Assembly: GCA_024137785.1 (NCBI GenBank)
Contig: JAHRHZ010000051.1
Location: forward strand, 12,012,824 to 12,076,823
DNA from: Ginglymostoma cirratum
Lineage: Eukaryota
Length of the DNA stretch: 64,000 nucleotides
Direction of reading: 5' to 3'
In this document: piece by piece, positions 8,546 through 46,884 of the stretch
Numbering within the stretch: the stretch's first letter is position 1
Layout: each line of letters opens with the position of its first letter
Program-made: the position numbers and the translations under genes
The notes under the pieces: generated by a model
The model's input: only the letters and a program-made list of their open reading frames with translations
Databases searched by the model: none
What the model was told of the DNA's origin: nothing

Positions 8546-9490
8546 CGTTACCTGGGTAATCAGGCAACACTGGGGAACGTTGACAGGGCAGAAAATGAAA
8601 AGTGAGATGACCACATTCATGAGAACAGGGAAGCTTAAGCAGAGAATTACAGGAGTCACCCAGCTTTTGATGAGGTGAATTGGCAAGACATTACTGCAAC
8701 TGACCAGCATATGGATAACTGGGGGCCATGAGTTTAATATGGTCAGCAAAACAGAAAGACTAGAAGTTCTTATCTAGACCAAAACATTAAAGACTGTTAA
8801 GGCAAGGAATCTGAGAGGGGGAGGTTGAATATTGTGACAGCTTTGGAAAGGCAATTGGGTAAATGTGTGAAATAGCTGCTTTAGCTGCATATTATTGTTT
8901 GTATTCCCTAAGTTTTGGTATGGACAGTACTGGATAAACCAGACACGTTTTGCTGATATGGTTATCTTGATAATAAAAACATGTAAATGGCAATGATCGA
9001 AAGTTGGGTCTTGAAGATGAGGCTGTGAATATTTCCTCTGGCAGCTTGTTCCATTGTGGGATTATCCTTGGGAAGCAAGTTTATTGATCCACTGCCTTGG
9101 AAAGAGATAATATTTGTAGTTTGTGTGGATGGCTCGTCTTTCGTCATTACCAGAGGGCACAAAGTTCTTGTTTGCCACAAGTCCATTCCACATTTTATAG
9201 AACATGGGCAGTCTTTTTCTTATCATTGTTTGCTGTGGTGGTTCGTATTCCAAACAACTCAACAAGATTCCTTTGACAGTACCTTTCAAACCTGAAACCT
9301 CTACCAGCTAGAATAACAAGGATACAGATACATGGGAACACCACTACCTGGAAGTTCCCCTCCAAGCCACTCACCAGCCTAATTTGGAACTATATTGCTG
9401 TTCTTTTATTATTAGGTCAAAATTGTGGAACTTCCTTTATAACAGCACAATTGGGGTCACTACACAACAAGGAATGCAGTGTTTTAGGGA

Positions 9491-9675
9491 GATAAAAGGT
9501 ACTGCAGATGCTGGAGAATCTGAGATAACAAGGTGTGGGCTGGATGAACACAGCAGGCCAAGCAGCATCATAGGAGCAGGAAAGCTTGACGTTTCGGGCC
9601 TAAACCCTTCATCAGAGGGTCTTCATCAATGTTGCTTGGCCTGCTGTGTTCATCCAGCCCCACACCTTGTTATCT
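9491..9675. mobile_element. Palindromic non-autonomous Penelope-like (pLTR-derived) insertion with hammerhead motif
   Basis: Inverted arms; perfect 14-bp TSD cagtgttttaggga at 9477-9490 and 9676-9689; minus-strand CUGAUGA-A-GGG UUUAGG CCC-GAAA-CGUC at 9588-9615. Confidence 0.85.
9588..9615 (-). ncRNA. Minimal type I hammerhead ribozyme core motif (stem I weak)
   Basis: Reverse complement reads ctgatga a ggg tttagg ccc gaaa cgtc; all core nucleotides present, palindromic ACGU stem III, GUC cleavage triplet. Confidence 0.6.
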
Positions 9676-9884
9676 CAGTGTTTTAGGGACGTATCTCAGC
9701 AACACTTTCTCCAGGGTAATTACAGATTGGCAATTAACCACGGACAGACACACATCACATGAATAAATGGAAAATGAACAAGAAACATCTTCAATCATAG
9801 ATATGACACAGGTATTTGTCCCATGCTGTTTTACTCTGTAGGCAGAGGTAATAGTATTGAGACATTGACACATTACTTGCTGAA

Positions 9885-10180
9885 AGGATGCCTCCCCTTT
9901 TAGGGGAGTCTAGAACTAGGAGTAACAATATTAGAGTGTCTTATATTTAGGACAGAGATTAGCATTTTCTTTTACTTTCATAAGGTTGAGAGGTTTTAGA
10001 ATTTGCTTCCCCAGAGAGTGGTAGAGGCAGAGAAATATATCTTTAAGGAAATGGGAGTCAGAGTATCAATGATGAGCAGGAATGTAGATTTGAAGTCACA
10101 ATCTGATCTGTTATAATTTAATTGAAAGACGCGGCAGATTCAAGGGCCTGAATAGCCTACTCCTAATTTATGTGTTCATA
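9885..10180 (+). mobile_element. Old CR1 3' fragment
   Basis: aggatgcctccccttttaggggagtctagaactagg...gcctgaatagcctactcctaattt resembles 34560-34860. Confidence 0.65.
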
Positions 10181-12049
10181 TGAATTGCACAGTATGCTTT
10201 TGGATTGCTTCAATTTTATTTATATCCCTCACTGTAAAAGATCCTACGGACAACTTGAGTACTTCAGAATTGGAAAAAGAAATGGGGTTAAAATATTGAT
10301 AGTATTGTTGCAATAATAAATATTTTGTATATATATATATCTTAACAACCCTATTTGCTTTGGATGTTTATTTATTTGTATAAATGGATCTGTATAACAG
10401 CAATGACATTCAACCCAAAGAGAGTCTTGAGCATTGTTCTAGGATTCATTTTGTATCAAAATTCGAACATGCATATCTCTAATAGGTTGCCATTTTTCAT
10501 ATAAGGTTGCCCTAATGGAATCTAGTGATGCAGTTTCCTGCCAAAAGCGTTATTGACTCACCTAAGGAAGGTCCAGCAAGTTCACATCTTTAGTCAATCA
10601 GGTAGGAGAATAATAGAGGTTCCTGCGATTATACGGAATACAATTATATAGACGTTCAGTCCACTCTAACAGCTACGGTCAGCCATGGAGTTGAACTTCT
10701 TTATATTTTTCTTTATTTTCCATTAAGAGGGAGTCCACAGTGTTCCACAGACAAATTACTGGGAGAGTTTAAGTGCAATATCCTCAGGTGACTTGATTTA
10801 AGGATAGATGGCACAGTTTGAACACAAATCTTCCCAACTGCATACAATTACAATTAATTGCCAAAAACATACAGCAAAAAAAAACCCAGTTCCCTAACAT
10901 AACTACTAATGCTCCCCTGTGAAAGAATTTTCCACTTTCATGTGCATACTGACGTATTAATAGCTTGAAAACCCCAAAATGCACCAATTAAAGAGGGCAG
11001 TTTCACTTCTGTCCATTGCAGTGTTCGAGTACTCATTCAGACCCATTTAACTCCATCACTGCAGAAATCACCAAATTAAACATCACTTTCCATTGCAACA
11101 GCCTCTGTCCACTTCAATGCCCTTGCAAATTGCAAAATTTACTCCTACATTCCCTTGTTTCGGCAAAGCCACACACGTATGGATTCATCCATCCTGCATC
11201 CACTTTAAACTCAAGGTACAATTCTAATCAGGCAAAATCTTGAGCAGCAAATCAAATGTTACGGGCATTACATTACAATGAACCATTCTTGCATTCTCAG
11301 TATAATTGTGCCAGCCAAGCTACCTTATGAGTGGAAGGTCACTGTTGTAGGGAAGCAGGAAAAACATCCCTGCACATCCCTGGAATTGATTTGCTGTAAT
11401 TTGGAAAATGACAAGTGATATAGATCATACAATGACTTGGTCTTCTGTTTCTTGCCAATCAGGATTTTCTCGGGGAAGTGAAAAACACCTTATGCCTCTG
11501 GTACTGGAGGACTCCCAATGAAGGGAGAATGGGATTGAGTTTCTACCTCAATCACATGGAACTGGTGTCAGAAAATAATACACTGGCCTTACTGGCAATC
11601 AAGGTAGAAAAACCTTGCTATGATTTTTCATCAATAAAACTTACAAAACGTGTGCTCCTTGTACCTCATGTTTTCAATCCCAGTTTTACAAACATTTAGC
11701 ACAATGAAAAGCTCCTTTTTAATATACCTGGCTGATGCATGCACATGTTCTCCTCAAATCCACTCTGGGCTGTATGGTGACATTTGGGCATTGCTGTACA
11801 TCACTCGAACAAAAACAACTTTTAAGTTCTCGGCAGAGCGTAGTTCATAATAACCGTGAGAAACCAGTGACATGGAAGCTTGCCAAATATGAGAGTTGCT
11901 GGCACGTACATATTTTGATTTTCTTAACAACTTGGACTTAGATCCACTGGGCATTATTTCAAAGTTTACAAAAGACACAAAAGCTTTGGGAAGTTTAAGG
12001 GATGAGGAGATAGCAGCAGATTCCAGGAGGGAGAGACAAACTGGTGGGA

Positions 12050-12665
12050 TGATTGATGATAGTTAATATAGGAAGGTGTACCTGCAGCATCTTCTAGGTA
12101 GAATGAGGAAAAGCAATGTACATGAACTGAAACCATTTTAAAAGGGGTGAAGGAACAGAGAGACCTGGCAGTTTATGTGGAAACCTTTGAAGGTGGCAGG
12201 GCAGGTTTAGAAGGCTACTTAAATTCAAAACAAAATACAGGATCTTTGGCTTCATAATTGAGGCACAGAGTACAAAAGCAAGCAAATAATGCTAAACCGA
12301 GATCAATCATGAGATAATGCTCCCAGTTGGGCCACTTTCCAATTCTGGGCATCATACATCAGCAAGGATGTCAAGGCTTTGGAGTCAGTACTGAAGAGAT
12401 TTACTGAAATGATATCGAGGTGAAACTCTTGAGTCCAGAGAGACAGGGAAGGTCCAGAGAATATTTAATAGAGGTATCCAAAAGTAAGGAGGGAAATAAA
12501 GAGAAACTGCCTCCACTGGCTGAAAAAATAATATCAGGGGACACAGCTAAGAGGTAATTTGCAAATTAATCTGCGATAACATTTGGAGATTTTTTAAATA
12601 GTGAGTTATAATTATAAAGATCTGGAATGGATCATCTGATATGGTAATAGAAGCAAAGTTAATAA
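12050..12665 (+). mobile_element. Old CR1 ORF2 3' remnant
   Basis: gaggcacagagtacaaaagcaagcaaataatgcta...caattctgggcatcatacatcagcaaggatgtcaaggctttggag, degenerate CR1 RT C-terminal coding sequence. Confidence 0.6.
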
Positions 12666-13127
12666 TAGCCGTTAAGGACCAAGTCTTTGTATTTTGTGTT
12701 TTAAAAATCTGGGGACTGAAATGAGAAAGAACGGTTTTAAAAATGCGTTCGAAAGAGGGACTGCAGTTTTGAAAGTAGGTAACTGGATACCCAGAACAGG
12801 CATTGCAAAAAAATGTTTAAACAAGCAGTAATTGAAGTTCAGCTTGCAAATGATCTGGGGCCAAGGGTGTGCCCTGATGCAGCTCTTGTTGGCAACAAGA
12901 AATTGATTGGTTTGTGAACTAGTGATAGGTATCAATGAAAGAGACCTTTTGCTTGCCGATAACAGCATAATTGATTCTCAGGTAGCTGAGCAGTTTGGAG
13001 CTGGAAACTAGTTACAGAGACAGAGAGAAAGATGTGTGCATACTTTCTCTTAGGCTGGAAGCTGCCTATTCTCTGCAGTCAAAACCTCAGTTTAAATTTG
13101 AAGAAAACCAATTACCTTTTCTGCAGT

Positions 13128-13343
13128 GATAGTAGGAACTGCAGATGCTGGAGAATCTGAGATAACAAGGTGTAGGGCTGGATAAACACAGCAGACCAAG
13201 CAGCATCAGAGGAGCAGGAAGGCTGATGTTTTGGGCCTAGACCCCATTTCTGAAGAAAGTTCTAGGCCCGAAACGTCAGCCTTCCTGCTCCTCTGATGCT
13301 GCTTGGCCTGCTGTGTTCATCCAGCTCTACACCGTGTTATCTC
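13128..13343. mobile_element. Palindromic non-autonomous PLE insertion with hammerhead motif
   Basis: ~85-bp inverted arms; 14-bp TSD accttttctgc(a/g)gt at 13114-13127 and 13344-13357; plus-strand CUGAAGA...GAAACGUC at 13250-13277. Confidence 0.88.
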
Positions 13344-13380
13344 ACCTTTTCTGCGGTAGTTGCTGAGCTGAGACTTGAAA

Positions 13381-14280
13381 TAGAGTCATACAGTAGATAG
13401 AGATAGAGATACATAGCATGGAAACAGAACCTTCAGTCCAACTCATCCATGCCAATCAGATATCCTATATAAATCTAGTCCCATTTGCCAGGGCCCTATT
13501 TTGACCCATATCCCTCTAAACTCTTCCTATACATATACCAATCCAGATGCCTTTTAAATGTTGTAATCGTACCCACCTCCACCACTTCTTCTGGAAGCTC
13601 ATCCCATACACGCACCACCCTCTGCATGCTTTGTTCCCTTCTATATCATTCCCCTCTCACCTTAAAGCTATGCTTCTAGTTTTGGACTCCCCAACCTTGG
13701 GGAAAAGACCTTGGCTAATCACCCAATTCAAGCCCATCACGATTTTATAAACCTCTATTTCACCTCTCAGCATCCGATACTCCAGGGAAAATAATGTCAG
13801 CCTATTCAGCCTCTCCCAATAGCTCAAACCCTCCAATCCTGGCAACATCCTTATAGATCTTTTCTGAGCTCTTTCTAATTTCACAACATCTTACCTACAG
13901 CAGGGAGACCAGAATTGCACACAACACTCCAGAAGTGGCCGAACCAATGTCCTGTACAACTGTAACATGACCTCCCAACTCCTATACTCAATGCCTTGGC
14001 TAAAAGAGGCAATCACACCAAATGCTTTCTACACTATCCTATCAGACTGCAACTCCACCTTAAAGGATCAATGAACCTGCACTGCAAGGTCTCTTCGTTC
14101 AGCAACACTCCCCAGGACCTTACCATTAAGTATATAAGTCCTGCTCTGATTTGCCTTTCTAAAATGCAACACTTCACATTTATCTAAATTAAACTCCATA
14201 TTCCACTCCTCGGCCTATTAACCCAACCGATCAAGATCCCATTGTACTCTGAGGTAACCTTCTTCACTGTCCACGACACT
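13381..14280 (-). mobile_element. CR1-clade LINE (HER1-like), 5'-truncated
   Basis: Minus ORF 13657-13884 KLERAQKRSIRMLPGLEGLSYWERLNRLTLFSLEYRMLRGEIEVYKIV is the CR1 ORF2 C-terminus; tail at 13381. Confidence 0.92.
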
Positions 14281-14938
14281 TCAGAATCATTTTCCAAGTG
14301 AGTCAGCCACTCTGTACTTCTAACAAAACTGTGGAAGCACCCAGATTATTGCACAAGGGATCTGGCAAACCGAAGAAGGATCATCTCAACATTGGAACTG
14401 GGAAGCAAAGACCACTGAACTGACTTTCCAGCTTTTTCTACCGTCACCAGTAATCTATTGTCCCTGCTTATTTGTGTACGTGTGTATATATAAAGAGTTT
14501 ATATGTCAATGGTTTATAATCTGTTTACTTGTAGTTATGGTCAAATTACTTGTAATAAATGGTAATTCTTGTTTAGTACAGAAATCTGATCGATCAGCCT
14601 TGGCCCGAATGCCACATAAATTAGGGTACTATGCGCACTTTTTTTAAAAAAACTTTAATATTTGGTATGACTCTTAGAGTAATGGGGCTTGCTTTACCTG
14701 TGAGATCCTAGTGGCTTATAATAAAAGATTATAGCTCTGAAGTGGCAAATGTGGACCCAGAGTCCATATTGATTTTGGATCTTGCCAGTTTTCAAAAATT
14801 GGTTTCGGCCACATACATGTTGTGATATATCTACGTTATGTGTTCATCCTTCTCATTTGAATCCAGCTTGACTCAAGATACTGGCTATTTGTCTCTCCTC
14901 TGTTGCTTCTTTTCATTCTAAAAATTGTGTAAGATATT

Positions 14939-15911: not shown

Positions 15912-16386
15912 CACAGCAAAATTTTTATTAACTGGTACCTATGGGACCAGAAATGCGCTGGATGATCAATTATTCTGGATAATCAAGAGGTCCACATAAT
16001 CAATGGAAAAACACACTCAGGAAAAGAAACAGAACGCAGGGGGTACACACAACACTGTCATACTTTATTTACAGCACAAATCACTTAAATAATAATGAAG
16101 CTTTGCCTTAAATAAAACTTACCGGCAGAGAGCCTTCTCATTTGCACCCTCAACTGACTGCTCGGACATCACGGTAAGTTGCAGTATTTGAGGAGAAATT
16201 GACTTGAAATTGAATCAACTGTTGACATTTCATGTGGCCATTAGATTGAACAAGTACATTTATATTGAATAAGTACATTTATATTGAGGTAAATAAATTT
16301 TATAAACTATGATAATGGACAGAGTAATACAGTAAACTTCATGGTGACTGAGGTATATAATTTTTGCCTGTTTATCAAACGTACTG
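15912..16386. mobile_element. Possible Tigger/Tc1-mariner-like DNA transposon remnant
   Basis: Start acagcaaaatttttattaactggtacctatgggac...ctggataatcaagagg resembles Tigger-type subterminal sequence; ends ...gtactg; recalled similarity only. Confidence 0.3.
16245..16287. repeat. 19-bp tandem duplication
   Basis: attgaacaagtacatttat attgaataagtacatttat attga. Confidence 0.85.
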
Positions 16387-16908
16387 ATTCATAAGGTATC
16401 AATGAAAACGAAGCTTGCTGCACTTAAAATTCTTGCACAGTCCATGTTTAAAAAAAGCAGTGAGTCCTTTTTTTGGAGAACCGGAGGGTATCTGTAAAAA
16501 CTTTCAAAAGGGAACAGAATAAATATTTGAAGGAGAAATTCAAAAGTACAGGAGAGTAAAACTATGTGGATGCCTCTTGCAATTAGCTTGTTTCTGTGGC
16601 GGTAGATTCTAAGCATTGAGAGGTAAATATTCTGTGAATCGTTGAAGGGAAACTGTAGAGTGGGTTGAAACTGATGAGCACAGCAATTCAAGTTTGTTAC
16701 AACTGCTAATTCTCTCTGTCCCATTGCATTCACTCACTCATTGTTAATAAGTCTGCGACCCACAAAACCATGTGACCAACAAAAAAATTCTCTTTCATAC
16801 TTAGAACATGCAGGTTCCTCTAGCTCATGTGAGGTCTGAGACCATTTTCGGAGGTACATTTGTGGTGATTAAGGGGAAGCAGCTAACAGAAGTGAAGCTT
16901 CCACATTA

Positions 16909-17041
16909 GTAAAGCAAAATACCATGGATGCTGGAGATCTGAAAGAGAGAGAGAGAAAATGTTGAAGAAACTCAGGTCTGGCAGAATCGGTGGAGAAAAA
17001 AACAAGCGTTAGCTCCTTGAGGCCGATGTGACTCTTCAAAA
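16909..17041 (-). mobile_element. Older PLE pLTR remnant (solo arm, decayed hammerhead)
   Basis: aaagcaaaataccatggatgctggagatctgaaa...gactcttcaaaa is the reverse complement of the family at 62651; its tail resembles that of the palindromic family. Confidence 0.6.
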
Positions 17042-17766
17042 TTTCAGATGTCTCGTGAGTTTTGTCACTTGTCATGTTGTTTGTGAGAAGATCCCAATTT
17101 TTGTTGCTTATTTTGTAAGATTCAAATGTAGGGTAATGTTCAACTAGATAGTGCCCTTGCAAAGACATTCAGCTGTTATTGTGCCACTCCCTACCAGACA
17201 GTATTGCCAGAGGACCTCTACTACATGGGCTGCAGGTGTTTAAGAAGGGAAATCACCTTCTCAGGACAACTAGAGGGGAATTTTTTTTTAAAAAAAAGGT
17301 TTGCTGCTGGTTTCCTTGAAGCAGCTAGCAACTCCCTAAACTGGAGTCAGTAAAGGCAGCAAAACTCAGTCAGATAGCTATGCTCACCATCATAGAGACA
17401 ATAGGTGCACCGTGGCAAGTTTAGATGCTGAATTTCTGGTGGTATCTCGTGACCCCTTCCATGCCACCACTGTCAAAAACAATTTATAAGCAATCCCACT
17501 AAGAACTAAACAGTGGTTGCAAGACAGATTGGATATTGGCGCCGATGCCTTCAGATTCTCGCCTGGCTTCTTGGTGCCTTATCTCGCTGAGATTAGTACC
17601 TCACGGATGACAACCACAATTTTAATATGCTTCTCACCAAAGAAACAATGTCTCCATTGGCTCAACTAGTACATCTAGCTATACGTTATAACATACTACC
17701 AATTCAACAAACTTCATGAGAGGGGGTTCGGCAGTTAAGAATTAGACAAAACCTAAAGCCTCCGAC

Positions 17767-18193
17767 TCAGCCTTGGCTCAGTGAGTTGCTTCCCAGTAAG
17801 TGGATTGTGGGTTTCTGTCCTACTGTATAGGCCTGAGCCCAAACATCCATGTTGACGCTCCCGGTGCAATACTGAGGGAGTGCTGCACCGTCAACGATGC
17901 TGCCATTCAGATGATGTGTTAAGATGAAGCACTGTCTATTCTCAGAGTTGGATGCAAAAGGTCTCATTCAGAAATGAGAAGGGGAGTTCTCCCTGGTCTG
18001 CTGGACAATATTTATCCCTTAACTAACATGACAAAAATCTACTTATCTGGCCATTGTGACATTGTTGTTTGTGGGAGCAGGCTGTGTGCAAATTGGCTGC
18101 TGTATTTTCTACAATACTGCACTTAAAGTATTTCATTGCTGGAAAGCTTTGGGATGCTCAGAGATCGTGACATGCACTATATAAATGCAAGTC
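17767..18193 (+). mobile_element. DeuSINE (SacSINE1/AmnSINE1-like), near full length
   Basis: tRNA-like head (ttggctcagtg), Deu domain (actgagggagtgctgcacc...ttgtgggagc...caaattggctgctg), tail cactatataaatgcaag. Confidence 0.8.
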
Positions 18194-20552: not shown

Positions 20553-20745
20553 AACAACTTGCATTTAACCATGAAAGAGTCCAAGGTGATTCATCGGAGT
20601 ATTATCAACAAAATGTGACAATCAGCCAAGCGAGGACAGTACCGGAATAGTCATGTTTAGAAGCAAAGGCATGGTTGAGGGCTTCAGCAGATGAACTGTG
20701 ACAGAGGTGGAATCAGGCAAGGTCATGGAAGGGGAATTGAGGGCT
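20553..20745 (-). mobile_element. L2-like 3' tail remnant
   Basis: aacaacttgcattt...ccaaggtgattcatcggagtattatcaacaaaatgtgac, antisense of the tail at 47050-47175. Confidence 0.55.
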
Positions 20746-20850
20746 GTTGGGGGACAGTGGTAGTGCCTATGCCTCCGTGCCAGGAGGCTTGGATTCAAGT
20801 CCCTCCTGCACCAGAGGTATGTAATACCATCTTCCAAATGGTATTACATG
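20746..20850 (+). mobile_element. Short tRNA-derived SINE
   Basis: ggggacagtggtagtgcc...ggattcaagtccctcctgcaccagaggtatgtaataccatc; A/B boxes; same family as 31402-31527. Confidence 0.7.
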
Positions 20851-21550
20851 TTCAGAGATATCTATGAAAGGGGAAGGAGGCTGACTGCATTTATACAGCA
20901 CGTTGTTAAAGGCTCATTTGCGATTCAAGCATTACACCAAGTCTGCAAACAGCCTGGCTTAGTTAGCAGTCACCACAGCAAGAAGGGTTGGGCAGACAGA
21001 GATATGTTTCAACCTCAACTTCCAGCTTGCAAATGACCCTACTCACTTGTGCCATGTGTATATTCGGCACTCTGCTTCATCCTTTATTTCCTCAGATCTA
21101 GATATCGTTTTGGTTGCAGTCAGGTCAGAGCCCAACACTGGCTTTTGCTCTGTAGTGCTAGCAAGGTACATCTGAACTGAGGAAGAGAGGGGTGCAATCG
21201 ATTGCTAAGGAACTGAGATGGTGTGTCATTTTCAGCAGGAGCAGCACGAGGCTTTCATGATTCAATCCCACACCTGAGTCACTTACCCTCCTGGTCTGTC
21301 TCCAACCTCTTCTGGAGGTCAAAAGAATACCTGTGATGGGGGCAAAAGCATTGACAAGCGGGAGTTGACTGCCTGTATTAAATCTTCCTCTGCAGCCACT
21401 GTGTATCTTCTTGAAGATAACTGGAAGTGAGCTTGCCAGATGAAGTAAATGCAGTTAACCCAATGCATCAGCCTGCAGGCAACAATGCTATTGGAGCCGG
21501 GCAATGCCAAACTATATGAAACTTTCAGTTGTGCGCAGACATGCAACAAA

Positions 21551-21667
21551 CTAGGCTTGAAACGTCAGCCTTCCTGCTCCTCTGATGTTGCTTGGCCTGC
21601 TGTGTTCATCCAGCCGTACACCTTGTTATCTCGGATTCTCCAGCATCTGCAGTTCCTACTATCTCTG
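21551..21667 (+). mobile_element. Solo arm of the palindromic PLE family, 5'-truncated inside hammerhead stem II
   Basis: ctaggcttgaaacgtcagccttcctgctcc...gttatctc followed by the tail ggattctccagcatctgcagttcctactatctct. Confidence 0.88.
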
Positions 21668-22729
21668 AGTAAAACAATATCTGGTTGAGCGACTGGGGTG
21701 TAAAGGGATTGTGCTTCTCACATGCATAGATAGTTCAAAAGTTCAACATTGCTTTCAGCCTGCATTGTCTTCCTAGAAGGCTGCTACTAAGTATGGCTTT
21801 GCTAACATCAGGGAGAAAATTAAAAGGTTCCATTAAAAATTGGGACTTAATTGCTTTATTTGTGAAACTACTGGTCCTGCAATTTTGCTTTTCTACTTTG
21901 CACAAAGGCGCTGGCTGCTTTCCACAATGACACAAATCCTTGATATGATTAAAATGGAAACTGGATGTGTTGGCACATCCTATTACTCCTCGGGAAAATA
22001 TGTTGACCATTCCTGGGAATAATTTAAAAGGATGACATAATTGGGATTGTTGCATTTGGCAAAATGTTAGTGAGCTTTAACAGGCCTTGTCACAATTAGA
22101 ATGAAATGCCAATTTAATTCTGTGTTCATCATCTAATTTTACTTTAAGAGAAAATCACAAAACACGTTAGCTAATTAGTTCTGATATCTATGATAATTAT
22201 AAAAAAAACCTCTGACAGAATAAATATATTTATAATTGGGCATTTTATTGAGGATAATGTTCAAACCTGTTCTAATATGCTCCCTTCAGTATGTTCAACA
22301 TGGATGTACAAATTTCGCTGCACTCTGTCAAATTGTCTGATGTGACGGTCATTGTTCTGAAGTTGACATTTCAGTAACTACACCATAGCATTGGGTAAGA
22401 ATATGGAAATTGTTGCTGCAGATTACAGTCACCATCACAAGAAGTTACAATCTGCACAGATAACCAGATTCAACAGTTATAAAGATAAAAGTGCACACAG
22501 AGGGGGTTTCAGGCCTATTGCATTTGTGTGACCTAAGTTAACTGGAATGTAGCTTTATATACCATTGAAATTAGGAGAACTTTCTGTTTGGTAAGTCTCA
22601 AATTCTTTAGAAAATATCTCAGGAAATAAAACACTTATTTAAATCATTAACAGTTATACACAATCAATAGAAAATTAATGCCTTTGGCACAAATTATAAT
22701 GCAGACAGTGTTAATTTTTAAAGATCCAG

Positions 22730-24487: not shown

Positions 24488-24597
24488 ATTTGTTCGCTCG
24501 TAGGACATGGGTGTTGCTGGCTAGCGTTTCTTGCCTTTTCCTAGTTGCCCTTGAGAAAGTGGTGGTGAGCTGCCTTTTTGAACCGCTGCAGTCCACA
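24488..24597 (-). mobile_element. CR1-like 3' tail fragment
   Basis: cctagttgcccttgagaaagtggtggtgagctgcctttttgaaccgctgcagtcc matches 3308-3362. Confidence 0.8.
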
Positions 24598-25690: not shown

Positions 25691-27642
25691 CATACATTTC
25701 CAGCAGGGGTCACTGAATAGCCATTAGCAGCACCAATCCCGACTGTTTCCCCCCACCCCACTCATCAATCTCAGGACATTGGTCCCATCCCCAGTTTTCA
25801 AGTTCTTCTTGGCTCGGCACATACAGAGGATTGAACCGGGTCAACCAGGGTTTGTGTGATTCAGCAAACTACCAGGAAATGCATTTATCAATTATATGTC
25901 AGACTCCGAAGGATTGCAACAGAACAACACTGCATCAGAATGCAGTAGTGGGTGGAAGCTCTAACATCTGACCATACAGCGTCTCCCATCTCTTCCAAGC
26001 TCTCCTCATACTGTGGCTGGTTGACCCATATCTGTCATGGTGCCTTGTCCATAAGTGAACATCGATAACGAGATTTCACAGCTGTTGAACGCAAAGTTTG
26101 AGAATCACAGTTGATACAGCCAAATAAAGAAATAGCAGGAAGCAATAGACAAGAATCAAGAGCGGGAAAGAGAGAGAGAATTTGGCAGTCAGCTAGAAGG
26201 GCTTAGCTCAATCATCATGGGGAAGGGGCTGAACCTGCAATCTTGCTGCTCTGAATAGCTCAGGAGTGTACTACTACGACTCTTTGTCTCTCAAGTGCAC
26301 TGACTGAGATTTTTTGAAAGCAGTTCGACATCATTAAACCATAGCGTTTTATGATTTTATCTCATCAGACAACACAAGGCAGCAGTGTTCCCAGATGGAA
26401 ATTGAAAATTCCTCTGATAGTGTGAGGCTTGCACTAATCCAATAGAACAGAAGGATTTCGCAAAACCTCTGAACAGCAAAGCATCCCATTCAATTGAAGG
26501 TTGCTTAAACCAGGCATACATCACTAATCAGTTTACTGATATGCCCTTATGAAAGAGGTCAGCCACAATAAAGCTAGCAGCTCGAATTGTGGTGCATTCT
26601 GGCTCATTCTGTCTGTTCCTCAGTTTTCACTGGCTGGCCAAGTAACCCAAGAGGGAATACTGCTCTGCCTCCAAATTGACCCTTCCCTTCTTCCAGGGCA
26701 GCCGAGCAGGAGCAGCAGAGTTAATGAGAATGCTACGTATAGCAACAACACAAACCCCAGAGAGAATGACGGTGACTGGGCGCTTCCTTCGTCAATCATT
26801 GCTTTTAAGAGACTGACTTCACCCCTTCCATTACGTAACTGTCCTGCACTCACTGTATTAATCTGCAGACGTAATCTGGTTATAATCTGGAGACTGTCTG
26901 CCCTACTTTTCATAATGAGAATGGAGACTCGCGCAAATTAAAACCACATTCCTGCCCTGCCTCCAACTCATTGGCTGATAAAGTGGCATCGATAATAGCA
27001 CAACCAACAGCTGTCAGTTAGTTGACAGCATGGATCTGCTGGTCAGTGGTCAAAGGAAGTGTTCAGTGTTAGTGACAGTACCACACAGTGTCAGCCTCAA
27101 ACATGCCCAAGCAATGGAGCTGGCTGCTGGGTATTCCGTGCTGTTGTCTCAAAGACCTTTATTAAATCTAATCCCCAACAATACCCTCTACTTTCCTACA
27201 CAAAACCACTGCTGTCATCTCTGACCAACACTGGACCAGTCTTACTGAAGACCTTACAAACATTTCCTGTGGCACACCTTTGAGCCACGTAATGCAGGCG
27301 AAACCTAGCCCCTCTGTAATGACCATTCCCTTTGGCCAATACTTATGTGAACAATGGCCAGTAGTGTTTCTCACTGTCAAGTTAGTTTGAAGGTTATTAT
27401 CTCTACAATAATGCCCGACTCTCGTGACCCACCCTGCACAGTATCACTGGATTTTGTATGTGAAAGTTCAACTTTTTATACTGGCAAATGGATGGTCCTT
27501 TGTTTCATCCCCTCCCTCCTGTGTCATTATGGTCCAATAATGTGGACATAATAACGGATACCTGTGTGGAAACAGTCTTCGAAATCTGTGTAATTTTACT
27601 ACGGTTTTAAAAGCCAGCTTACTCAAGGTCAGATTTTTTATT

Positions 27643-28006
27643 AGATAACACGATGTAGAGCTGGATGAACACAGCAGGCCAAGCAGCATCAGAGGAGCAG
27701 GATGGCTGACGTTTNNNNNNNNNNNNNNNNNNNNNNNNNNNNNNNNNNNNNNNNNNNNNNNNNNNNNNNNNNNNNNNNNNNNNNNNNNNNNNNNNNNNNN
27801 NNNNNNNNNNNNNNAACACAGCAGGCCAAGCAGCATCAGAGGAGCAGGATGGCTGACGTTTTGGGCCTGGACCCTTTTTCAGAAGAAGGGTCTAGGCCTG
27901 AAACGTCAGCCATCCTGCTCCTCTGATGCTGCTTGGCCTGCTGTGTTCATCCAGCTCTACACCGTGTTACCTCAGATTCTCCAGCATCTGCAGTTCCTAC
28001 TATCTC
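27643..28006. mobile_element. Palindromic non-autonomous PLE insertion (contains 100-N gap)
   Basis: Inverted arms meet at cccttttt-c-agaagaaggg (~27880); tail on right arm; imperfect TSD tcagatttttt at 27629 and 28005. Confidence 0.82.
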
Positions 28007-34862: not shown

Positions 34863-36249
34863 ACGTAGTTAATCTTTAAACACCTTCAAAAAAGTACTAC
34901 AACATCCATACGCCACTAGTTTTAAATCCAAACTCTTCAAAAAATGTTATATTTATAGAAATCACACCTTTCACCACAGTTTGACAACTTTCCTTTGGAC
35001 GTCCTTTGGGATGTTTTACAACATTAAAGGTGCTACATAAATGCAAGTTGTCACGGTGGGCGATGATATTGTTGACAATAATAAGACCAGGAATAACAGC
35101 CATTCATTACAATGTTACTTTGACAGCACTGACTGTCACTGGCACATCTCCACTTACTGAAATTCTCTCCAAGAACAATGAAACAGAGCCATCAACGTTT
35201 CTGCACTGACCACCCAATAAGAAACAAGCCCAAGTAGGAATGGTGACTTTTAAGTGTAAAATAAATCTGGTCTTGAATGATCATGAAAAATAGATGACTT
35301 CAGGCAGCTTCCCATTAAACGCCTTTCTTCAGTGAAGTCAAAAGAAACTGAGAAGAGTTTATAGGGGCTCAGCTGCTGTCAAGTTTTGTATTATCACCTC
35401 AACATAAAATTACCCCTGTTCAATCAATTAAAAAGTTACCTACAATATGAGAAGCTGCAGGAAAATTTTCACACTCCTCGGGGAAGATTTCACATCATCT
35501 GAGAGAAATTGAAAAAATCCTCACTCCTGGGTTTTACGGCTCGATGTTCACATTAGGCAGGACTGTCATCGCACCCTCTCGCACCAACTTGTTAACATAA
35601 ACAAGACAAGAATGTAGCCTTGCCGGTGTTATTTTGTCAGTTTGCGCAAATCTATTACAAACTAGCTCCTGACAATGAGATTAGTCTGGCTTCCGCAGGT
35701 GTGAAGCGGACTTGTTTATACACCCTGTTTGAACAGAACATGCTAAAGGAAACTAGTTTTAGCTGCTAGTGTATAACAGTATCATCTGGCGTGCTACAAA
35801 AGATCCACACACCAGGCAGGTGTCCTCAGTGTGGGAGAAGTGGCCTTGGCACTCTGGTCAGCCTCACTGAGCCTGGGCTAGAGTGAAAACAGGTTCACAG
35901 CACCGTGCACTCAACAGCAACAGATGGTGGAAGTTTCCGCAGAATCAAAATCACTGAGGCAGAGTTTGACAGCACTCAGGCCACCTCAGCCCAACAGTCC
36001 CCCACCAGCTTTCATCCAACTGATCAAAACTAATTTGAGCAATACATCTACGGCTGGGATGCCTTCCAGGATCGAACTGCCTGTCAATCTTCAATGTCCA
36101 ACGTGGTTGTTTTGGATGAGATTCTCTCAACACAGGGATGGAGACAGAGCCAGGTGGGCCTCAGCACCCAAGGTCGGGGTGGAGATGTGGATAAAATTGT
36201 AGGGAGCCTTGTCTAAAGGTTGCTTGGCTTGCCGAACTGGTTTGCTGTT

Positions 36250-36293
36250 CCGCAGACGTTTTGTTACCGTGCTTGGTAACATCCTCAGTGCAG
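36250..36293 (-). ncRNA. Minimal type I hammerhead motif in PLE 3' end (G12 mutated to A)
   Basis: cugca-CUGAGGA-u-guuacc-aagcac-gguaac-AAAA-cguc-ugcgg: 5-bp stem I, 6-bp stem II, ACGU palindrome. Confidence 0.7.
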
Positions 36294-37160
36294 CCTCTGA
36301 TGAAGCATCGATGTGTTTTCCCGCCTGGTTTTTAAACTCTGGGGTCCGTTGCGATGGATTGCCTCACTTCCAGGTTTCCTCTGCAGTGGAATGTATATGG
36401 GGTCGAGTTCAATGTGTTTATTAATAGCCTGCTTCGTGGAGTGCCACGCTTCCAGGAATTCTCGTGCTTGTCTATGCCTAGCCTGTCCCAGGATCTTGGT
36501 CTTGTCCCAGTCGAAGTCGTAGTTCTCCTTGTCCATGTGGATTGAGATGAGTGAATATTGGTCGTGTGTTTTTGTAGCCAGTTGGTGTTCATGTACTCTT
36601 GTTAGTTTCCTTCCTGTTTGTCCGATGTAGTGCTTCTTGCAGGCTCTGTGTAGAATCTTTCTGATGCTGTTCCTGTAGGCATCTCCTGATCCAGTTCTTT
36701 GGATATCCATTATCCTTGAACACTTGGAAGAGGTATTCCTTCTCCTCTTGGCGTAGTTCCATGTTGCTGCAGTGTGTTGTTGCCCTTTTAAATAGTGTTC
36801 ACACGCAGCTTCGTTTCTGTGTGCTGGGATGGTTATTATTGAAGTTCAATACCTGGTCTGTGTGTGTGGCTTTTCGGTGTTCTTTCGTTTGCAGTTCCCC
36901 ATTTGTCTTGTGCTCTACCATGACGTCCAGGAATGGGAGTTGTTTGTTCTTCTCCTCCTCTCTGGTGAATTTTATTCCGGTGAGGGTGTTGTTTATGAGT
37001 TTGTGTCTCTCTTCTAATTTGGTCCGTTTAATGATGACAAAGGTGTCGTCTACGTAGCGTATCCATAGTTTAGGATGGATTTGCGGAAGGGAAGTCCTTT
37101 GCAGTCTTCGCATCACTGCTTCTGCTTTGAGTCCAGAGATAGGCGATCCCATGGGGATCC
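36285..37160 (-). pseudogene. Penelope-type reverse transcriptase C-terminal part + GIY-YIG endonuclease, disrupted
   Basis: PMGSPISG...KLWIRYVDDTFVI...IKFTREEE..QLPFLDV..RKATHTD..LNF..NHP; in-frame TGA at 36799; KHYIGQTGRKL..RVHEH..FDWDKTKIL..REFLEAWH..IN. Confidence 0.92.
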
Positions 37161-37585
37161 AACAACACACTGCAGCAACATGGAACTACGCCAAGAGGAG
37201 GAGGAATACCTCTTCCAAGTGTTCAAGGATAATGGATATCCAAAGAACTAGGTCAGGAGATGCCTACAGGAACAGCATCAGAAAGATTCTACACGCCCCG
37301 ACAGAGACTGCGAGAAACACTACATCAGACAAACAGGAAGGAAACTAACAACAAGAGTACATGAACACCAACTGGCTACAAAAACACACGACCAATACTC
37401 ACTCATCTCAATCAACATGGACAAGGAGAACCACAACTTTGACTGGGACAACACCAAGATCCTGGGACAGGCTAGGCATAGACAAGCACGAGAATTCCTG
37501 GAAGCATGTCACTCTATGAAGCAGGCTATTAATAAACACATTGAACTCGATCCCATATACATTCCACTGCGGAGGAAACCCTGAA
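37160..37585 (+). pseudogene. Second (inverted) copy of the PLE RT tail/GIY-YIG coding region
   Basis: Reverse complement of 36370-36782 with scattered substitutions and an 8-nt indel. Confidence 0.9.
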
Positions 37586-37659
37586 GTGAGGCAATCCATC
37601 GCAACGGACCCCTGAGTTTAAAAGCCAGGCGGGAAAACACACCGACGCTTCATCAGAGG

Positions 37660-37703
37660 CTGCACTGAGGATGTTACCAAGCACGGTAATGAAACATGTG
37701 CGG
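37660..37703 (+). ncRNA. Minimal type I hammerhead motif in PLE 3' end (cleavage triplet mutated)
   Basis: cugca-CUGAGGA-u-guuacc-aagcac-gguaau-GAAA-caug-ugcgg. Confidence 0.65.
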
Positions 37704-38207
37704 AACAACAAACCAGCTTGGTGAGCCAACCAACCTCAACACACACAACCCAAGCTACAAATCTACTCCAAAACCTTAGAGCCTTGTCTAAAGCTTCAAA
37801 CTCGACGGGGATGCTTGTGAAGTTCATATTCAAGTCTAATTGGATCTTTTGCAAAATCTACACCTTAATGTTAGCACTGAACCTGGTGGTACAGTAACTC
37901 TGATTTCCAAGAGACTATAACTGACAGAAGGCCCAACGGTTCCCATTTTCTTCATGCTTATGTCCAAAGTGGACTTGAACACTCTGGATTCTGATCGAAC
38001 GGGACAGTAGCTGTTATGAGACATCCAGAACCAAGCATACAAGGGCTGAAGCACGGCCTTTTGCTCCTTGTCCTGTTTTACTGACCACCCCCGTCCCTGG
38101 CCCAGCTCTCCTGAAGCTTATACCCTCAAAAGGAAATGCCATCTAAAACAGAGACAGAAGCAACAGTGCAGAAAGTGGGGTCGAATAAGAGAGGGCCGTG
38201 TAGCTGG

Positions 38208-38904: not shown

Positions 38905-39185
38905 CTACAGCTTGGCTTAGTTGGTAAAATTCTCATCTTTGAATGAGAAGATTGTGCATGTAAGGCTCAGCTCGGGGAGGGGCTCATTCAAGCTGACCGT
39001 CCAATAATACTTCATTATCCAGTGAAATACTCTGGGAATGCTGTACTGCCACCAGTGCCTGCTCCCTCTGCACTGGCCTTCTGACAACGCGAGCCTCCCC
39101 CTGCACTGACCCTCCGACAACGTGAGCCTCCCCCTGCACTGACCCTCCGACAACATGACCCTCCCTCAGCACTGACCCTCAGCAT
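38905..39185. repeat. DeuSINE 5' fragment followed by a 33-bp minisatellite from the opposite strand of the Deu domain
   Basis: Head cagcttggcttagttggt...; ~3.5 units of ctccccctgcactgaccctccgacaacg(c/t)gagc at 39062-39185. Confidence 0.7.
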
Positions 39186-41240: not shown

Positions 41241-41389
41241 CCCTTTAGATTTGCTCTCCTCTCTGCTCCTTACCAGAAGCTTGGTGGCTGCCACATGTGC
41301 CAATTTGCCATGGGGCAATAACAGCTGCTTTCTTCAGTGTGGCATCAGTTGGTAGTCCTCAGAAATAAAGCTCCTTAATGTCAGAACAA

Positions 41390-42723
41390 TGGTCACACTG
41401 AGAACTGGCACCACCTCTCCAAAGACAGCCGGTACGATCAAATGACAATTGAGGTTGCACTTAGGGACCTTTCAATTTACAAGACAGCTACAGATGGCAG
41501 CCTGACACTATCAATAGCTTTATTGGCAAACAAGGCAACTCTGCTGATTCCAAAGAACCATGCAGCAGTTTCCCCCAGCTATAGTCAGCTACTGGTGGCA
41601 GCAAGCACGTCCTTCATTTATAACTTGTAGCCTATTGCATGCTGAGATAATATCCTATTATGCCAAAACACCTCAATACATCTTACATAATTATGTGGAT
41701 AAATGGGGTTTGTTGTGCAGTTCCAAATGGGTGGCATGCATCTCCTAATAATGTCACACTCATTTGTCACAAAGGCATATTTCACGGAAGGTCCATGACC
41801 AGAAATAAACTAACTTTGAAATTACCACACACAAGCAAAATTATACACATGCATTAGAATTAGTGTTGCAGATAGTCAATACAATACAAATGCAACTTAG
41901 TTGAGGCTCCAAAATAATGGAAATTATTATTGAAATATTTCTAAGTAATATTCTCTAGGACTGAAGCATAGCATCTCTTCGTCCCAACTCAAGCAACGGC
42001 TTTTCTTCCCAACCTCTTGCCTCCAAATATTCACTTCCACATCGCCATGTTGCCCACTGGCAACGTCTCCTGCAGTTCTGATGCTCAGTGCTGGTCGTGA
42101 CTCAACTGGTAGCACTCTTTGTTCTGAATCACAAGGTTCGAGGCCTACTCCAGAGTGTGACCACAAAGCTGGTAACTCTGGTTATCCGAAATATCCGAAA
42201 TGGGATATCCGAAATTATTATCTCTCAAGTGAAGAGGGATGAACTGGTTCCTCTCCTTCTTGGCTGGTTGTAACAAAGTTCACACTGGTCACACTGAGAA
42301 CTGGCACCACCTCTCCAAAGACAGCCGGTACGATCAAATGACAATTGAGGTTGCACTTAGGGACCTTTCAATTTACAAGACAGCTACAGATGGCAGCCTG
42401 ACACTATCAATAGCTTTATTGGCAAACAAGGCAACTCTGCTGATTCCAAAGAACCATGCAGCAGTTTCCCCCAGCTATAGTCAGCTACTGGTGGCAGCAA
42501 GCACGTCCTTCATTTATAACTTGTAGCCTATTGCATGCTGAGATAATATCCTATTATGCCAAAACACCTCAATACATCTTACATAATTATGTGGATAAAT
42601 GGGGTTTGTTGTGCAGTTCCAAATGGGTGGCATGCATCTCCTAATAATGTCACACTCATTTGTCACAAAGGCATACTTCACGGAAGGTCCATGACCAGAA
42701 ATAAACTAACTTTGAAATTACCA
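41390..42723 (+). repeat. 438-bp direct duplication (41390-41827 and 42286-42723), probably an assembly artefact
   Basis: Copies identical by eye except ggcatatttc vs ggcatacttc; second copy abuts a 10-N gap. Confidence 0.85.
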
Positions 42724-43110
42724 NNNNNNNNNNGTTCGAGGCCTACTCCAGAGTGTGACCACAAAGCTGGTAACTCTGGTACAGCGTGGCACTCCGAGGT
42801 GCTGCTGCTTGAATGAAATGATAAACTGAGGCCTCGGTTGGCTGCTTGGGTAGGTGCAAAAGACCTCATGACACTATTCTGAAGAAAAACAAAGTGGTAT
42901 CCACTGTACGTTGAATATTCAGTATTCCACCCAACACCTTTTGCTTCAGTCAACAACATAAAATGGATCATTTGTCCATGATCACGTTGCTGTTGTATGA
43001 CCTTGCCGCAGGCACACTGGCTGCTGGGGTTTCTGCATTACGACAGTATCTGCATTTCATAAGTAAAGCACTTTGGAGATAGCTTGTGGTGATGAAAAGT
43101 GCTAGACTGC
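42085..43110 (+). mobile_element. DeuSINE split by the duplicated/chimeric block
   Basis: Head gtgactcaactggtagcactc...ggttcgaggcc at 42098-42182; continues after the gap at 42734-43110 with Deu domain and tail. Confidence 0.7.
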
Positions 43111-44744
43111 TACAACCAATCCCTCAGTGAGCCCCCTCAATCTGTCATGGTTCCATATGGGATATCCGAAATTATTATCTCTCAAGTGAAGAGGGATGAA
43201 CTGGTTCCTCTCCTTCTTGGCTGGTTGTAACAAAGTTCACTGCAAACAGAATCCTTTCTCTCCTGAAGACCTTTCTCCGAGATGCAAATGAATTTATGTT
43301 TTATAAGGAGCTAATTTTGCAAGATTTTCTTGAGTTAAAAGGAGAATTGGGTTAATCGGACAAACCTAAGTGTCCATGGCAGTACACTTTAAAATCACAG
43401 CTAGCCTTGAACCTTCAACGTGTTAGGTCACAATGTCAATGGTACCGAGACAAATGGGTCAGATAGGCAATAATACACAAATAAAACAAAGCAAACTGCT
43501 TGCTGCGCTTAAAATGCATTTAGAAACAATTACACAGGAACAGGTGGAGCACTGGGCCTCAAAACACTAAGTTGTTGGTCACCAACCATTAGAACTAGCC
43601 AAGAGAATTCGACCAGTTCCAAAGAATTTAATCTATTAATGCAATGGCAGTTGTATTCAACCTCACCACAGGGACACTACAAATGAATACCAGCCAATCA
43701 GAAATATTAAAACTTCTGAGCAGCCTGGTTTTGTTACAAATCGTCGGTGAGCATGACTCAATCTTAGCACGTTTAAATGTTTTAATTGCAAGTGGATTAT
43801 GCATGTAGTTTGCGGGACAATGTGCTGAACTAATCAGCTCCGATTTGCATCAATTTTCTGCTACTTTCTTGGTGATTTCTCAAACCAAACACACAAAACC
43901 TGCCAGCGCTCGAAAAATATTACTTTTAATTATTTTTCATGGAACATATTAAAATGTATGGCCCCATGACTCAACTGGAATTTCAACTGTTTGCTGTTGG
44001 CTTTGCATGTCGATTCTGATTGAGACACATTTCAGAGCCTGATAAAGGGGGGACTATGTGCTCAAATTGCACCCAGTAACCTGAGCAACTTACTTTGCCC
44101 TCCCATTTTATCGATGAAAAGTTAGGAAAAACCCAGCTTTCCAAAATAGCATAACTTACTCGCGAGGTCAGCATATAAGCCTTGGAACATCACTCCATTG
44201 GTAGGAGTCAACTTATACGGCAAGGATATACATGGACATCTGTTGAGGATGGTTATCATTATGGAATCTTTTTTGGTATCCAATGCATGTGTGACCATGT
44301 TTTAATCTCCAATGCATCTTCAAATGCTGTCCATATCACCTAGCTGATTCTTTGTGCTACAAGGTATCATTAAATAGGCCACATGTTTCAGCAGAGAAAA
44401 CTACAGGCTGACTACTAAGTATGTGAAAGTATAGCACATCATGTTTGAAAAAAGAGGGAATGACTTACATTCTGAGTACATGGGGATTAGAAACAAACAA
44501 CATTTTAAGGACAGGCAGAATGGGTTGACTTAGTCATTCTCCTAAATCAGAGTATGAGTGTTGGTGCCTTGTGTATAGGAGCTGTGAGGTCAGTCAATGC
44601 TGGCCATAACACTATTCCACCACATGGCAGAATGACAGCTTAAGCCTGTGGTAAGATCTCACATCTCACAGCACAGAAGGAGGCCAGTCAGCACCACCCA
44701 CCTGCTCTTTCCCAAAAGAATAGTTCCTTTTTGAACAGAGAATG

Positions 44745-45100
44745 ATGTTGCATTTATATGGCTCCTATCACAGCCGCCAGGAGTCCCAAAGTGTTTTACT
44801 GTCAATGAAGCACTTTTTGAAGTGCAGCCAATTTGCACACAGTAAGCTCCCACAAACAGCAATGTTTTAATAATCAGACTATTTTTGTGATTGAGCAATA
44901 CATATTGGTCAGGACCCCAGGGATAACTCATTTGCTCTTCTCTGAAATAGTGCCATGGGATGTTTAATATCCATCCAAGCAGGCAGATGGGTTTCGGCTT
45001 TAACCTCATCCAAAAGGTGACATGCCAGCATTGTGGTGCTCCCACTGTACTGATGCCATGCAGTGGGACTGGCACATACACACCTGACTCTTTAGCCAGA
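44745..45100 (-). mobile_element. DeuSINE
   Basis: ttgcatttatatgg...cagccaatttgcacacagtaagctcccacaaacagcaatg...tctgaaatagtgccatgggat. Confidence 0.8.
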
Positions 45101-45425
45101 GTGAGATCAGCATTTGGAACTTGGGGCAGCTGTGGCAAATACCGCAGATGCATTTAAAGGGGAATCCTGGATCAGCCAATGAGGCAGAAAATTATGTTGA
45201 TAGGGAGGGATGAAAGAAGATTAATGTTAAATAGGAACACCAGCACAGGTTGGCTGGGTCTGGTGGCCATTCAATGCAACGCTCTTTTGTAAGTTACTGC
45301 TTCCAACACTCTTTCCAAGTGGCCAAATCTGTTTCTCACCCAATAACCTGATAGAGGTCACTGGATAATGATCAAGTACTTTGCTGCGTCACTTTCCTTC
45401 AGCAACACATTTCACTACAGAGTGT

Positions 45426-46067
45426 TTCAGAGATAGTAGGAACTGCAGATGCTGGAGAATCTGAGGTAACAAGGTGTAGAGCTGGATGAACACAGCAGGC
45501 CAAGCAGCATCAGAGGAGCAGGAAGGCTGACGTTTCGGGCCTAGANNNNNNNNNNNNNNNNNNNNNNNNNNNNNNNNNNNNNNNNNNNNNNNNNNNNNNN
45601 NNNNNNNNNNNNNNNNNNNNNNNNNNNNNNNNNNNNNNNNNNNNNNNNNNNNNNNNNNNNNNNNNNNNNNNNNNNNNNNNNNNNNNNNNNNNNNNNNNNN
45701 NNNNNNNNNNNNNNNNNNNNNNNNNNNNNNNNNNNNNNNNNNNNNNNNNNNNNNNNNNNNNNNNNNNNNNNNNNNNNNNNNNNNNNNNNNNNNNNNNNNN
45801 NNNNNNNNNNNNNNNNNNNNNNNNNNNNNNNNNNNNNNNNNNNNNNNNNNNNNNNNNNNNNNNNNNNNNNNNNNNNNNNNNNNNNNNNNNNNNNNNNNNN
45901 NNNNNNNNNNNNNNNNNNNNNNNNNNNNNNNNNNNNNNNNNNNNNTGACATTTCGGGCCTCGACGCTTCTTCAGAAAGAAGAAGGGTCTAGGCCCGAAAC
46001 GTCAGCCTTCCTGCTCCTCTGATGCTGCTTGGCCTGCTGTGTTCATCCAGCTCTACACCTTGTTATA
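45426..46067. mobile_element. Palindromic non-autonomous PLE insertion (contains 400-N gap)
   Basis: Tail-bearing left arm and tail-less right arm; 14-bp TSD tcactaca(g/a)agtgt at 45412-45425 and 46068-46081; centre cttcttcagaaagaagaaggg. Confidence 0.85.
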
Positions 46068-46884
46068 TCACTACAAAGTGTGGCTCTTTTGTGTTCCAGT
46101 ACAATCTATAATAGAACCACGGTGCAGTCGTTCAATGGAGAGAAACCACTGCCTCTGCAGGAGACCTACACAAAGATGCAGTTGTGTGTATTTCTCTTGG
46201 ATAGCTGTGCTAAACCGATGGCTGGTATAAATCACCAGCAGCTCCGAAGCCTGTCAGTTTGTGGACTGTAGGTGAACTGAGTATTCCATCTCGACAGTGA
46301 GGAGTATGAAGTTAAGCTTTCTTGCAAGTACTGGAATTGGATGCATCAGCACTTTCACTGCTGTAAGGGATATCTCATTTATCTCTCTACCCTTCAACTA
46401 GATCTTTATTATCTACGGTGTGCAAGCCAAGTGTGAAACAGAAAAATCTGCTGCAGATTGCTGCATGTTCAACAGAATCATTGCTGGGAGGAGATGTGTG
46501 AAAGTAGGGAGACACCCAACCACTCAAGAAGATACACGAGTTTGAAATCAACATCTGCAAACTTGCAATAAAGAAGCTGCATCTCTTCGAAAGAGGTACG
46601 TGGGAAAGCTACATTGTTGTCCACAAGACTTAGACCTATCAACAAAGCAGTGGCATTTCTTGCGAGTCGAACGGATATTGTGATGCTGTAAAAAGACAGT
46701 TCAGAACCTATCCCTGACATTGATAATGCTGTTGAGGTACCATTGAAGCCAGCCTTGCAGCTTACTCGACAGCAGGCGGAGAGATTTAGCCAGTCCATGT
46801 AGGACAACCAATTTTTTTTTTTTACTTGTTGAACTGTACAGAATTTCAGAAATCCACTAGAACTTACATCTCTGTAACTGTCTC

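Follow-up and report, generated by a model that had tools for sequence, protein, structure and literature searches.

Endonuclease-bearing Penelope-like elements (PLEs) typically insert with an inverted, 5'-truncated copy of themselves, a tail of 30-40 bp on one side only, target site duplications (TSDs) and palindromic junctions, as set out in the parts of PMC8557442 and PMC3846280 on which we draw. The purified protein of the PLE Poseidon cuts and extends both strands; its two start sites are internal and delimit the tail, and it uses uncleaved RNA, hammerhead cleavage not being needed (PMC11167929). The origin of the inverted ends and one-sided tails is still treated as unresolved in the portions of PMC8557442 and PMC11167929 available to us. 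For PLE hammerhead ribozymes, PMC4209133 has already described pairs that lie 100-700 bp from each other and on opposite strands, together with a majority of solo motifs derived from truncated PLEs. Here we analyse a stretch of 64,000 nucleotides from the shark Ginglymostoma cirratum (assembly GCA_024137785.1, contig JAHRHZ010000051.1, positions 12,012,824 to 12,076,823), referred to in its entirety as the window, which contains several short insertions that are TSD-flanked, head-to-head pairs of one terminal repeat bearing a hammerhead motif. We consider it probable that these inserts are dead-end stubs that a Penelope-like retrotransposon with an endonuclease generates afresh each time it inserts.

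The window contains five copies of one unit of ~125 nt, four of them head-to-head fold-backs and one a solo arm, at the positions where an earlier reading made from the DNA alone (the sequence-only reading) had placed them. It had given ~120 nt for the unit and ~33 nt for the tail; the tail measures 31-37 nt. Nine arms are present altogether in a sensitive self-search (blastn, word size 7), which found no copy of the unit beyond the five within the window, and the arms differ from one another at 0-10 positions over 22-117 aligned nt. Every fold-back consists of a long arm ending in the tail and a short arm stopping where the tail begins, such that the tail is confined to the long arm in all four; the solo arm carries it as well. 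Copy 4 has its long arm on the right, unlike copies 1, 2 and 5, in which it is the left one. The inserts of copies 1 and 2 measure 185 nt and 216 nt respectively. Copies 4 and 5 were correctly located, but the lengths given for them had been inflated by runs of N; 47 nt are exactly duplicated on the two sides of the gap in copy 4, giving a probable true length of ~215 nt if the sides are assumed to merge across the 100-N gap, and copy 5 would measure ~223 nt if its sides overlap in the same way, for a real range of about 215-225 nt.

Each palindrome is flanked by its own long TSD, as had been proposed, with 14 of 14 positions identical in copy 1, 13/14 in copies 2 and 5, and 12/13 in copy 4, where the pair also differs in the length of a T-run. 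Among 5000 random pairs of flanks, seven matched over at least 13 nt. No TSD was found around the solo arm, for which the best match (8 nt) lies inside this null distribution. Public sequencing runs of G. cirratum (organism A) and of a relative (organism B) were compared with the window; in unique flanks, organism B differs from it at 158 of 3526 letters (~4.5%). An organism B contig covers 9022-9491 and resumes at 9691-9926 without a break in its own coordinates (473 to 474 in run X15, 478 to 477 in run X10), and this empty site is seen in both of the organism B DNA runs compared over 9000-13400, which come from two studies. The skipped 199 nt correspond to the insert (185 nt) together with one TSD (14 bp), leaving a single copy of the target in organism B; hence, copy 1 is a true insertion, accompanied by duplication of its target, and that organism B haplotype lacks it. 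Organism B contigs enter the solo arm and copy 4 from both sides, which indicates that both insertions are shared and therefore older, while no organism B contig bridging copy 2 was seen. The contig with the empty site also lacks ~709 nt at 9927-10635, where the depth shows no repeat signal; this is either an insertion in organism A or a deletion in one organism B haplotype.

The centres of the four fold-backs are all different. The two arms overlap by CCC in copy 2, by GAA within a near-palindrome in copy 4 and by 0-1 nt in copy 5, and the short arm of copy 1 begins 47 nt into the unit. In the comparison with the public runs, the 15 joints tabulated are accompanied by 1017 and 2455 further ones, some of which derive from other repeats. 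Both arms of copy 1 share a variant private to that element (column 88), as do both arms of copy 4 (column 42). At 9616, 4629 RNA reads run on upstream of the hammerhead core (median 63 nt, agreement 0.53), and at 13242 the same is true of 78 DNA contigs (agreement 0.73). These continuations represent one pyrimidine-rich stretch, of which 30 letters are visible and the last 8 nt are kept in copy 2, so that the arms appear to be pieces of something longer; its motif has no match in the window. Taken together, the differing junctions, shared private variants and upstream reads fit de novo formation of each fold-back at insertion, and on the same grounds the proposal of a distinct, palindromic non-autonomous family was not upheld. 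Where the arms meet the target, 2-3 nt are common to element and TSD at four of the seven scorable junctions, which fits priming aided by microhomology. In the upstream stretch of the parent, a T-rich run closes with CAG at ~20 nt from the core, resembling a splice acceptor; the pseudo-long terminal repeats (pLTRs) of PLEs are known to carry introns.

The hammerhead motif consists of CUGANGA, one extra base, the pair G10.1-C11.1, GAAA, palindromic ACGU where stem III would be, and GUC, and thus corresponds to the minimal type I form of metazoan PLEs (PMC4209133, in part), confirming the sequence-only reading on this point. That a common core runs through all copies holds only in part: a full CUGANGA...GAAA core is found in three of the eight arms tested, and a full core with intact stem II in one of eight, the long arm of copy 1 on the minus strand. 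The other seven tested arms contain remnants, and the ninth arm (copy 1, short) lacks the region. Stem I has 1-2 bp in the arms tested. CpG occurs in the unit at two sites only, both within the core, and every one of the four possible CpG transitions is observed there, which fits neutral decay. The two cores of any one insert lie on opposite strands, so that a single transcript cannot form a dimer in cis, and the core of copy 2 is paired inside a predicted hairpin of 92 pairs. For these three reasons, a functional or dimerising ribozyme is not supported in these copies. The comparison with Rfam that had been suggested gave no hammerhead family: there were no matches at the gathering threshold across the whole window, and three chance matches at E up to 10 over 9560-9660. 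Pair counts for seven sequences are compatible with the fold, as 81.5% of cells are paired compared with 14-51% when the alignment is slid, although 68 of 500 shuffles score equally high; in stem I, both partners have changed in two of the pairs. Beyond this stretch, the exact 27-nt pattern is absent from metagenome and viral contigs, and a degenerate core pattern occurs at three loci in metagenome contigs and at none in prokaryote or viral contigs. The three contigs are unrelated and animal-like, with near-identical cores, a 3-bp stem I in two and a fold-back without clear TSD in one; no PLE open reading frame (ORF) was found at these loci by tblastn. The fold-back (L001:1046-1248) extends over ~200 nt around a minimal core with a 3-bp stem I, and suggests that the layout is not restricted to sharks.

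The start points of eight arms out of nine fall between -8 and +12 nt relative to C3, or ~20-35 nt upstream of the cleavage site, at which itself no arm starts; these arms were copied from uncleaved RNA. No pile-up of read starts or ends was seen in two RNA runs, a weak test with fragmented libraries. In organism B, some recurrent joints have an arm ending a few bases from the cleavage site (9579 to 9634; 9579 back to 9537), a weak hint of a template cut by the ribozyme. The second of these joints belongs to ~53 nt of the unit's body repeated head to tail, starting approximately at the cleavage site and with a depth of 800-920, which is possibly a minisatellite that arose from such a template.

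From these features we infer an enzyme and a route of insertion as follows. A GIY-YIG endonuclease would cut the target with a stagger of ~14 nt, and reverse transcription of the element's RNA would be primed from each of the two free 3' ends, aided by 0-3 nt of complementarity. One end would start at the far site and give the long, tailed arm, while the other would start ~33 nt further in and give the short arm. Synthesis of both complementary DNAs (cDNAs) would end prematurely, close to the 5' edge of the uncleaved hammerhead; a few complementary bases would then allow their head-to-head joining, after which repair would fill in the gaps and duplicate the target. The hammerhead would be a passenger from the pLTR of the parent that decays after insertion. 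For the same inversions, self-priming on an antisense template has been proposed in PMC3846280 and would be compatible with the present data.

Several observations weigh against this account. No ORF for reverse transcriptase (RT) or endonuclease linked to the unit was found in the eight predicted proteins that contain its translation (see below), in the window, or in metagenome, prokaryote and viral contigs. Mobilisation by the RT and GIY-YIG endonuclease of a PLE, which the sequence-only reading had put forward, is consistent with the TSD, tail and hammerhead; no autonomous ORF tied to this exact family was found. The tight clustering of arm starts is also expected of a short, dedicated RNA, and private variants in both arms may equally stem from gene conversion within the hairpin. 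The arms of copy 2 conflict at two segregating sites, and at column 100 the long arms of copies 4 and 5 have C where their short arms have T; given a single RNA, these conflicts require additional mutation, conversion or two templates. Finally, some junction forms recur in organism B, at depths of 116-374 compared with ~12-14 for single-copy contigs. A bolder version of the stub explanation, which we advance only tentatively, is that the stubs form a genome-wide fossil record of Penelope integration, in which both cut strands serve as primers for a dimeric enzyme with two fixed start sites, sometimes on two RNA molecules, and both cDNAs reach the 5' edge of a short RNA headed by the hammerhead, or in a minority stop at the ribozyme cut. 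The basis for two RNAs is that the arms of copy 2 carry variants of different source copies. If this were true, counting junctions in sharks would make both the two-template model and cleavage in vivo directly testable.

A second and different Penelope family in the window (36204-37793) shows that Penelope enzymes in this genome make the same head-to-head, one-tailed, TSD-flanked structure. This ~1.6-kb insertion is flanked by a TSD of 15 bp (36204-36218 and 37779-37793); its arms are 92% alike, each with a hammerhead-like motif of its own, and a tail of ~42 nt is present on the right arm only. Its RT fragment matches RVT_1 at E = 4e-4, weaker than the cut-off, and is 66-72% identical to proteins of Chiloscyllium, Rhincodon and Stegostoma, with nothing significant among PDB sequences; the RT and endonuclease parts align to one protein with RT and GIY-YIG domains (P0018). 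When considered as the parent of the small unit, this element was rejected, as the self-search gave no sequence match. Relative to P0018, the same ~57 codons, lying between RT and GIY-YIG, are missing from the two arms, which were therefore likely copied from a template that already had the deletion. Coordinates of all features are given in Table 1.

Table 1. Arms and left target site duplications (TSDs) of the five copies, with the second Penelope element of the window for comparison.
Feature	Position	Strand	Description
Copy 1 left TSD	9477..9490	+	14 bp, identical to right TSD 9676-9689
Copy 1 long arm	9491..9617	-	Hammerhead core 9615-9588, body, tail 9521-9491
Copy 1 short arm	9629..9675	+	5'-truncated; without hammerhead or tail
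Copy 2 left TSD	13114..13127	+	14 bp, 1 mismatch with 13344-13357
Copy 2 long arm	13128..13244	-	Tailed; without CUGANGA; G12 and G16.2 lost at CpG
Copy 2 short arm	13242..13343	+	Begins 8 nt upstream of core 13250-13277; stem II broken
Solo long arm	21551..21668	+	Tailed; without CUGANGA; without TSD
Copy 4 left TSD	27629..27641	+	13 bp, 1 mismatch with 28005-28017
Copy 4 short arm	27643..27884	-	100-N gap 27715-27814 inside; G8 and G12 lost
Copy 4 long arm	27882..28006	+	Tailed; begins within core
Copy 5 left TSD	45412..45425	+	14 bp, 1 mismatch with 46068-46081
Copy 5 long arm	45426..45977	-	Tailed; 400-N gap 45546-45945; core 45974-45947, stem II broken; sides of gap conflict at two positions
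Copy 5 short arm	45978..46069	+	Begins within core
Comparison Penelope element	36204..37793		Head-to-head RT and GIY-YIG fragments, different family

The main rival explanation, less probable than de novo stubs from a longer parent although worth serious consideration, shares the two-strand priming and a fold-back made at insertion, but takes the template to be a short, non-autonomous RNA of ~130 nt, resembling a short interspersed element (SINE) or a retrozyme, which starts just upstream of the hammerhead and is copied in trans by a Penelope enzyme. It accounts for the clustering of eight of nine arm starts within 20 nt around C3 and for the lack of a linked ORF, and non-autonomous derivatives of pLTRs are reported in vertebrates in the part of bioRxiv 10.64898/2026.07.22.740005 available to us. 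It also suits the high abundance of the element, a claim of the sequence-only reading that was substantiated here: summed contig depth over the arms is 3e5-8e6, compared with ~8-20 in unique bins, the sum of depths not being a copy number. Set against this explanation are the thousands of RNA reads and 78 contigs that extend upstream of the core, the absence from the window of any head-to-tail tandem of ribozyme-bearing monomers, and, with the reservation already made for fragmented libraries, the lack of a read-end pile-up in two RNA runs.

Considerably less likely is a palindromic non-autonomous family that is transcribed and retrotransposed as entire hairpins and processed by its ribozymes. 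The inserts do have the one-sided tail in common and are similar in size, column 100 gives one variant common to two long arms, and junction forms recur in organism B. One palindromic junction is also transcribed, as the joint from 9593 to 9614 on opposite strands is supported by 364 RNA reads with 81 starts. Yet the four copies have four different junctions, element-private variants occur in both arms, and each transcript would contain one sense core, which is intact with stem II in only one of eight arms and has a stem I of at most 2 bp, the core of copy 2 being moreover buried in its hairpin.

We regard it as highly improbable that the inserts have been retained by selection as host ribozyme switches or double-stranded RNA (dsRNA) regulators at this locus. 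In favour of such a function, strong hairpins are predicted (-163.6 kcal/mol, z = -21, for copy 2 and -102.7 kcal/mol, z = -11, for copy 1), 55,889 of the 12,895,792 records in an organism A polyA run match the family, and the translation of the unit is found inside eight predicted proteins (eight of nine candidates pass). However, 96% of those matching records continue unlike this locus, and in the same run 17 of 30 bins in the unique flanks of copies 1 and 2 are without any depth; a second RNA run has 81 matches among 6,985,526 records. Run X1, which covers 16196-28389 but is only presumed to be RNA, was left out of the evidence on transcription. RNA of the family comes from other loci, of which the repeat is a passenger; almost nothing from this locus is seen in these samples. 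The suggestion of intronic transcription is upheld as regards the presence of the family in RNA but not as regards location, since no host-gene domain was found above the Pfam cut-off in 143 of the 177 stop-to-stop frames of at least 70 codons. The occurrence of all four CpG transitions in the core, and the absence of copy 1 from organism B, also argue against a host function. No RT domain was found in the eight proteins (P0001-P0008), a blank that is weak evidence; one of them is named as a ZNHIT3 isoform of Stegostoma, and the unit within them reflects exonisation or artefacts of gene prediction. In RNA run X22, from an unstranded library, A>G and T>C mismatches occur at 36 of 81 places compared with 20 for G>A and C>T, and in DNA run X15 from the other species at 51 and 40 respectively of 136 places; heterogeneity of the family can mimic A-to-I editing in such counts. 

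[quoted passage not shown]

Minimal, abundant insertions with intact TSDs and empty sites offer many natural junctions at which PLE integration can be tested, in particular priming on two strands, the use of one or two RNA templates, and hammerhead cutting in vivo. In annotation, such repeats will be mislabelled as MITEs and enter predicted proteins; they also break short-read assemblies, as two of the four fold-backs here fall on N gaps, and they are likely a large source of dsRNA in shark transcripts. Elsewhere in the window, identical blocks are duplicated around a 10-N gap at 41386-43240 (41386-41685 = 42282-42581; 42200-42283 = 43157-43240; 42136-42182 = 42734-42780), which is likely a scaffolding artefact. 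There are short tandem arrays at 39062-39180 and 63010-63124, with units of 33 nt and 38 nt, and several copies of another abundant repeat with a C-terminal translation resembling a long interspersed element (13403-14900, 29418-31000 and 2134-2691), two of them mutually inverted (29729-29942 and 30787-31000).

No account of short palindromic Penelope stubs in sharks was found in the literature searched, with Dfam and Repbase standing outside the comparison. MITEs, exemplified by palindromic, ~200-bp, heavily edited Harbinger elements of Xenopus (PMC5625713), are likewise short, abundant fold-backs and predicted substrates of ADAR if transcribed, but their fixed short TSD and symmetric TIRs are missing in the shark inserts. 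Animal non-LTR retrozymes (PMC7229834; bioRxiv 10.64898/2026.07.22.740005) are also non-coding and pLTR-related with a type I hammerhead; they are, however, head-to-tail tandems with a sense ribozyme in each unit, whereas the shark inserts are head-to-head pairs with long TSDs. A joint from 13343 back to 13128, such as circular RNA might give, is represented by one read in one RNA run and by 18 contigs in a DNA run. The minimal type I hammerheads of metazoan PLEs (PMC4209133) have the same CUGANGA, extra base before G10.1-C11.1, GAAA, palindromic 15.2-16.2 without loop 3, and GUC. Stem II in the shark is 4-5 bp, compared with 7-8 in Schistosoma, stem I is at most 2 bp as in the D. virilis variant, and the shark motif is broken in seven of eight arms.

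The Poseidon element PAc of Anolis (PMC11167929) has the same two ends ~33 nt apart downstream of a minimal hammerhead, and its arms include the uncleaved hammerhead. The shark ends lie at +91 and ~+124 from the AUG-equivalent of the core, compared with +111-118 for the main PAc start; the start region is AC-rich in PAc and the shark tail CU-rich, and most shark copies read CUGAAGA and so have no AUG. PAc is autonomous and assayed, whereas the shark unit is known from sequence only. Also close in layout are Pen2a_Av/Pen2_Av of Adineta (PMC3846280; scheme in PMC8557442), with the same head-to-head, 5'-truncated copy, 30-40-bp tail on one arm, TSD, overlap or palindrome at the centre, proof by empty site, and assembly gaps at the inversion. 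By comparison, the shark arms are cut to ~50-130 nt, without ORF and very abundant, and the TSD is 13-14 bp rather than 8-10 bp. Element class, ribozyme and layout are all already known, and these inserts are not a new system; they represent the published layout of inverted pLTR plus tail at minimal size, with a mostly dead hammerhead.

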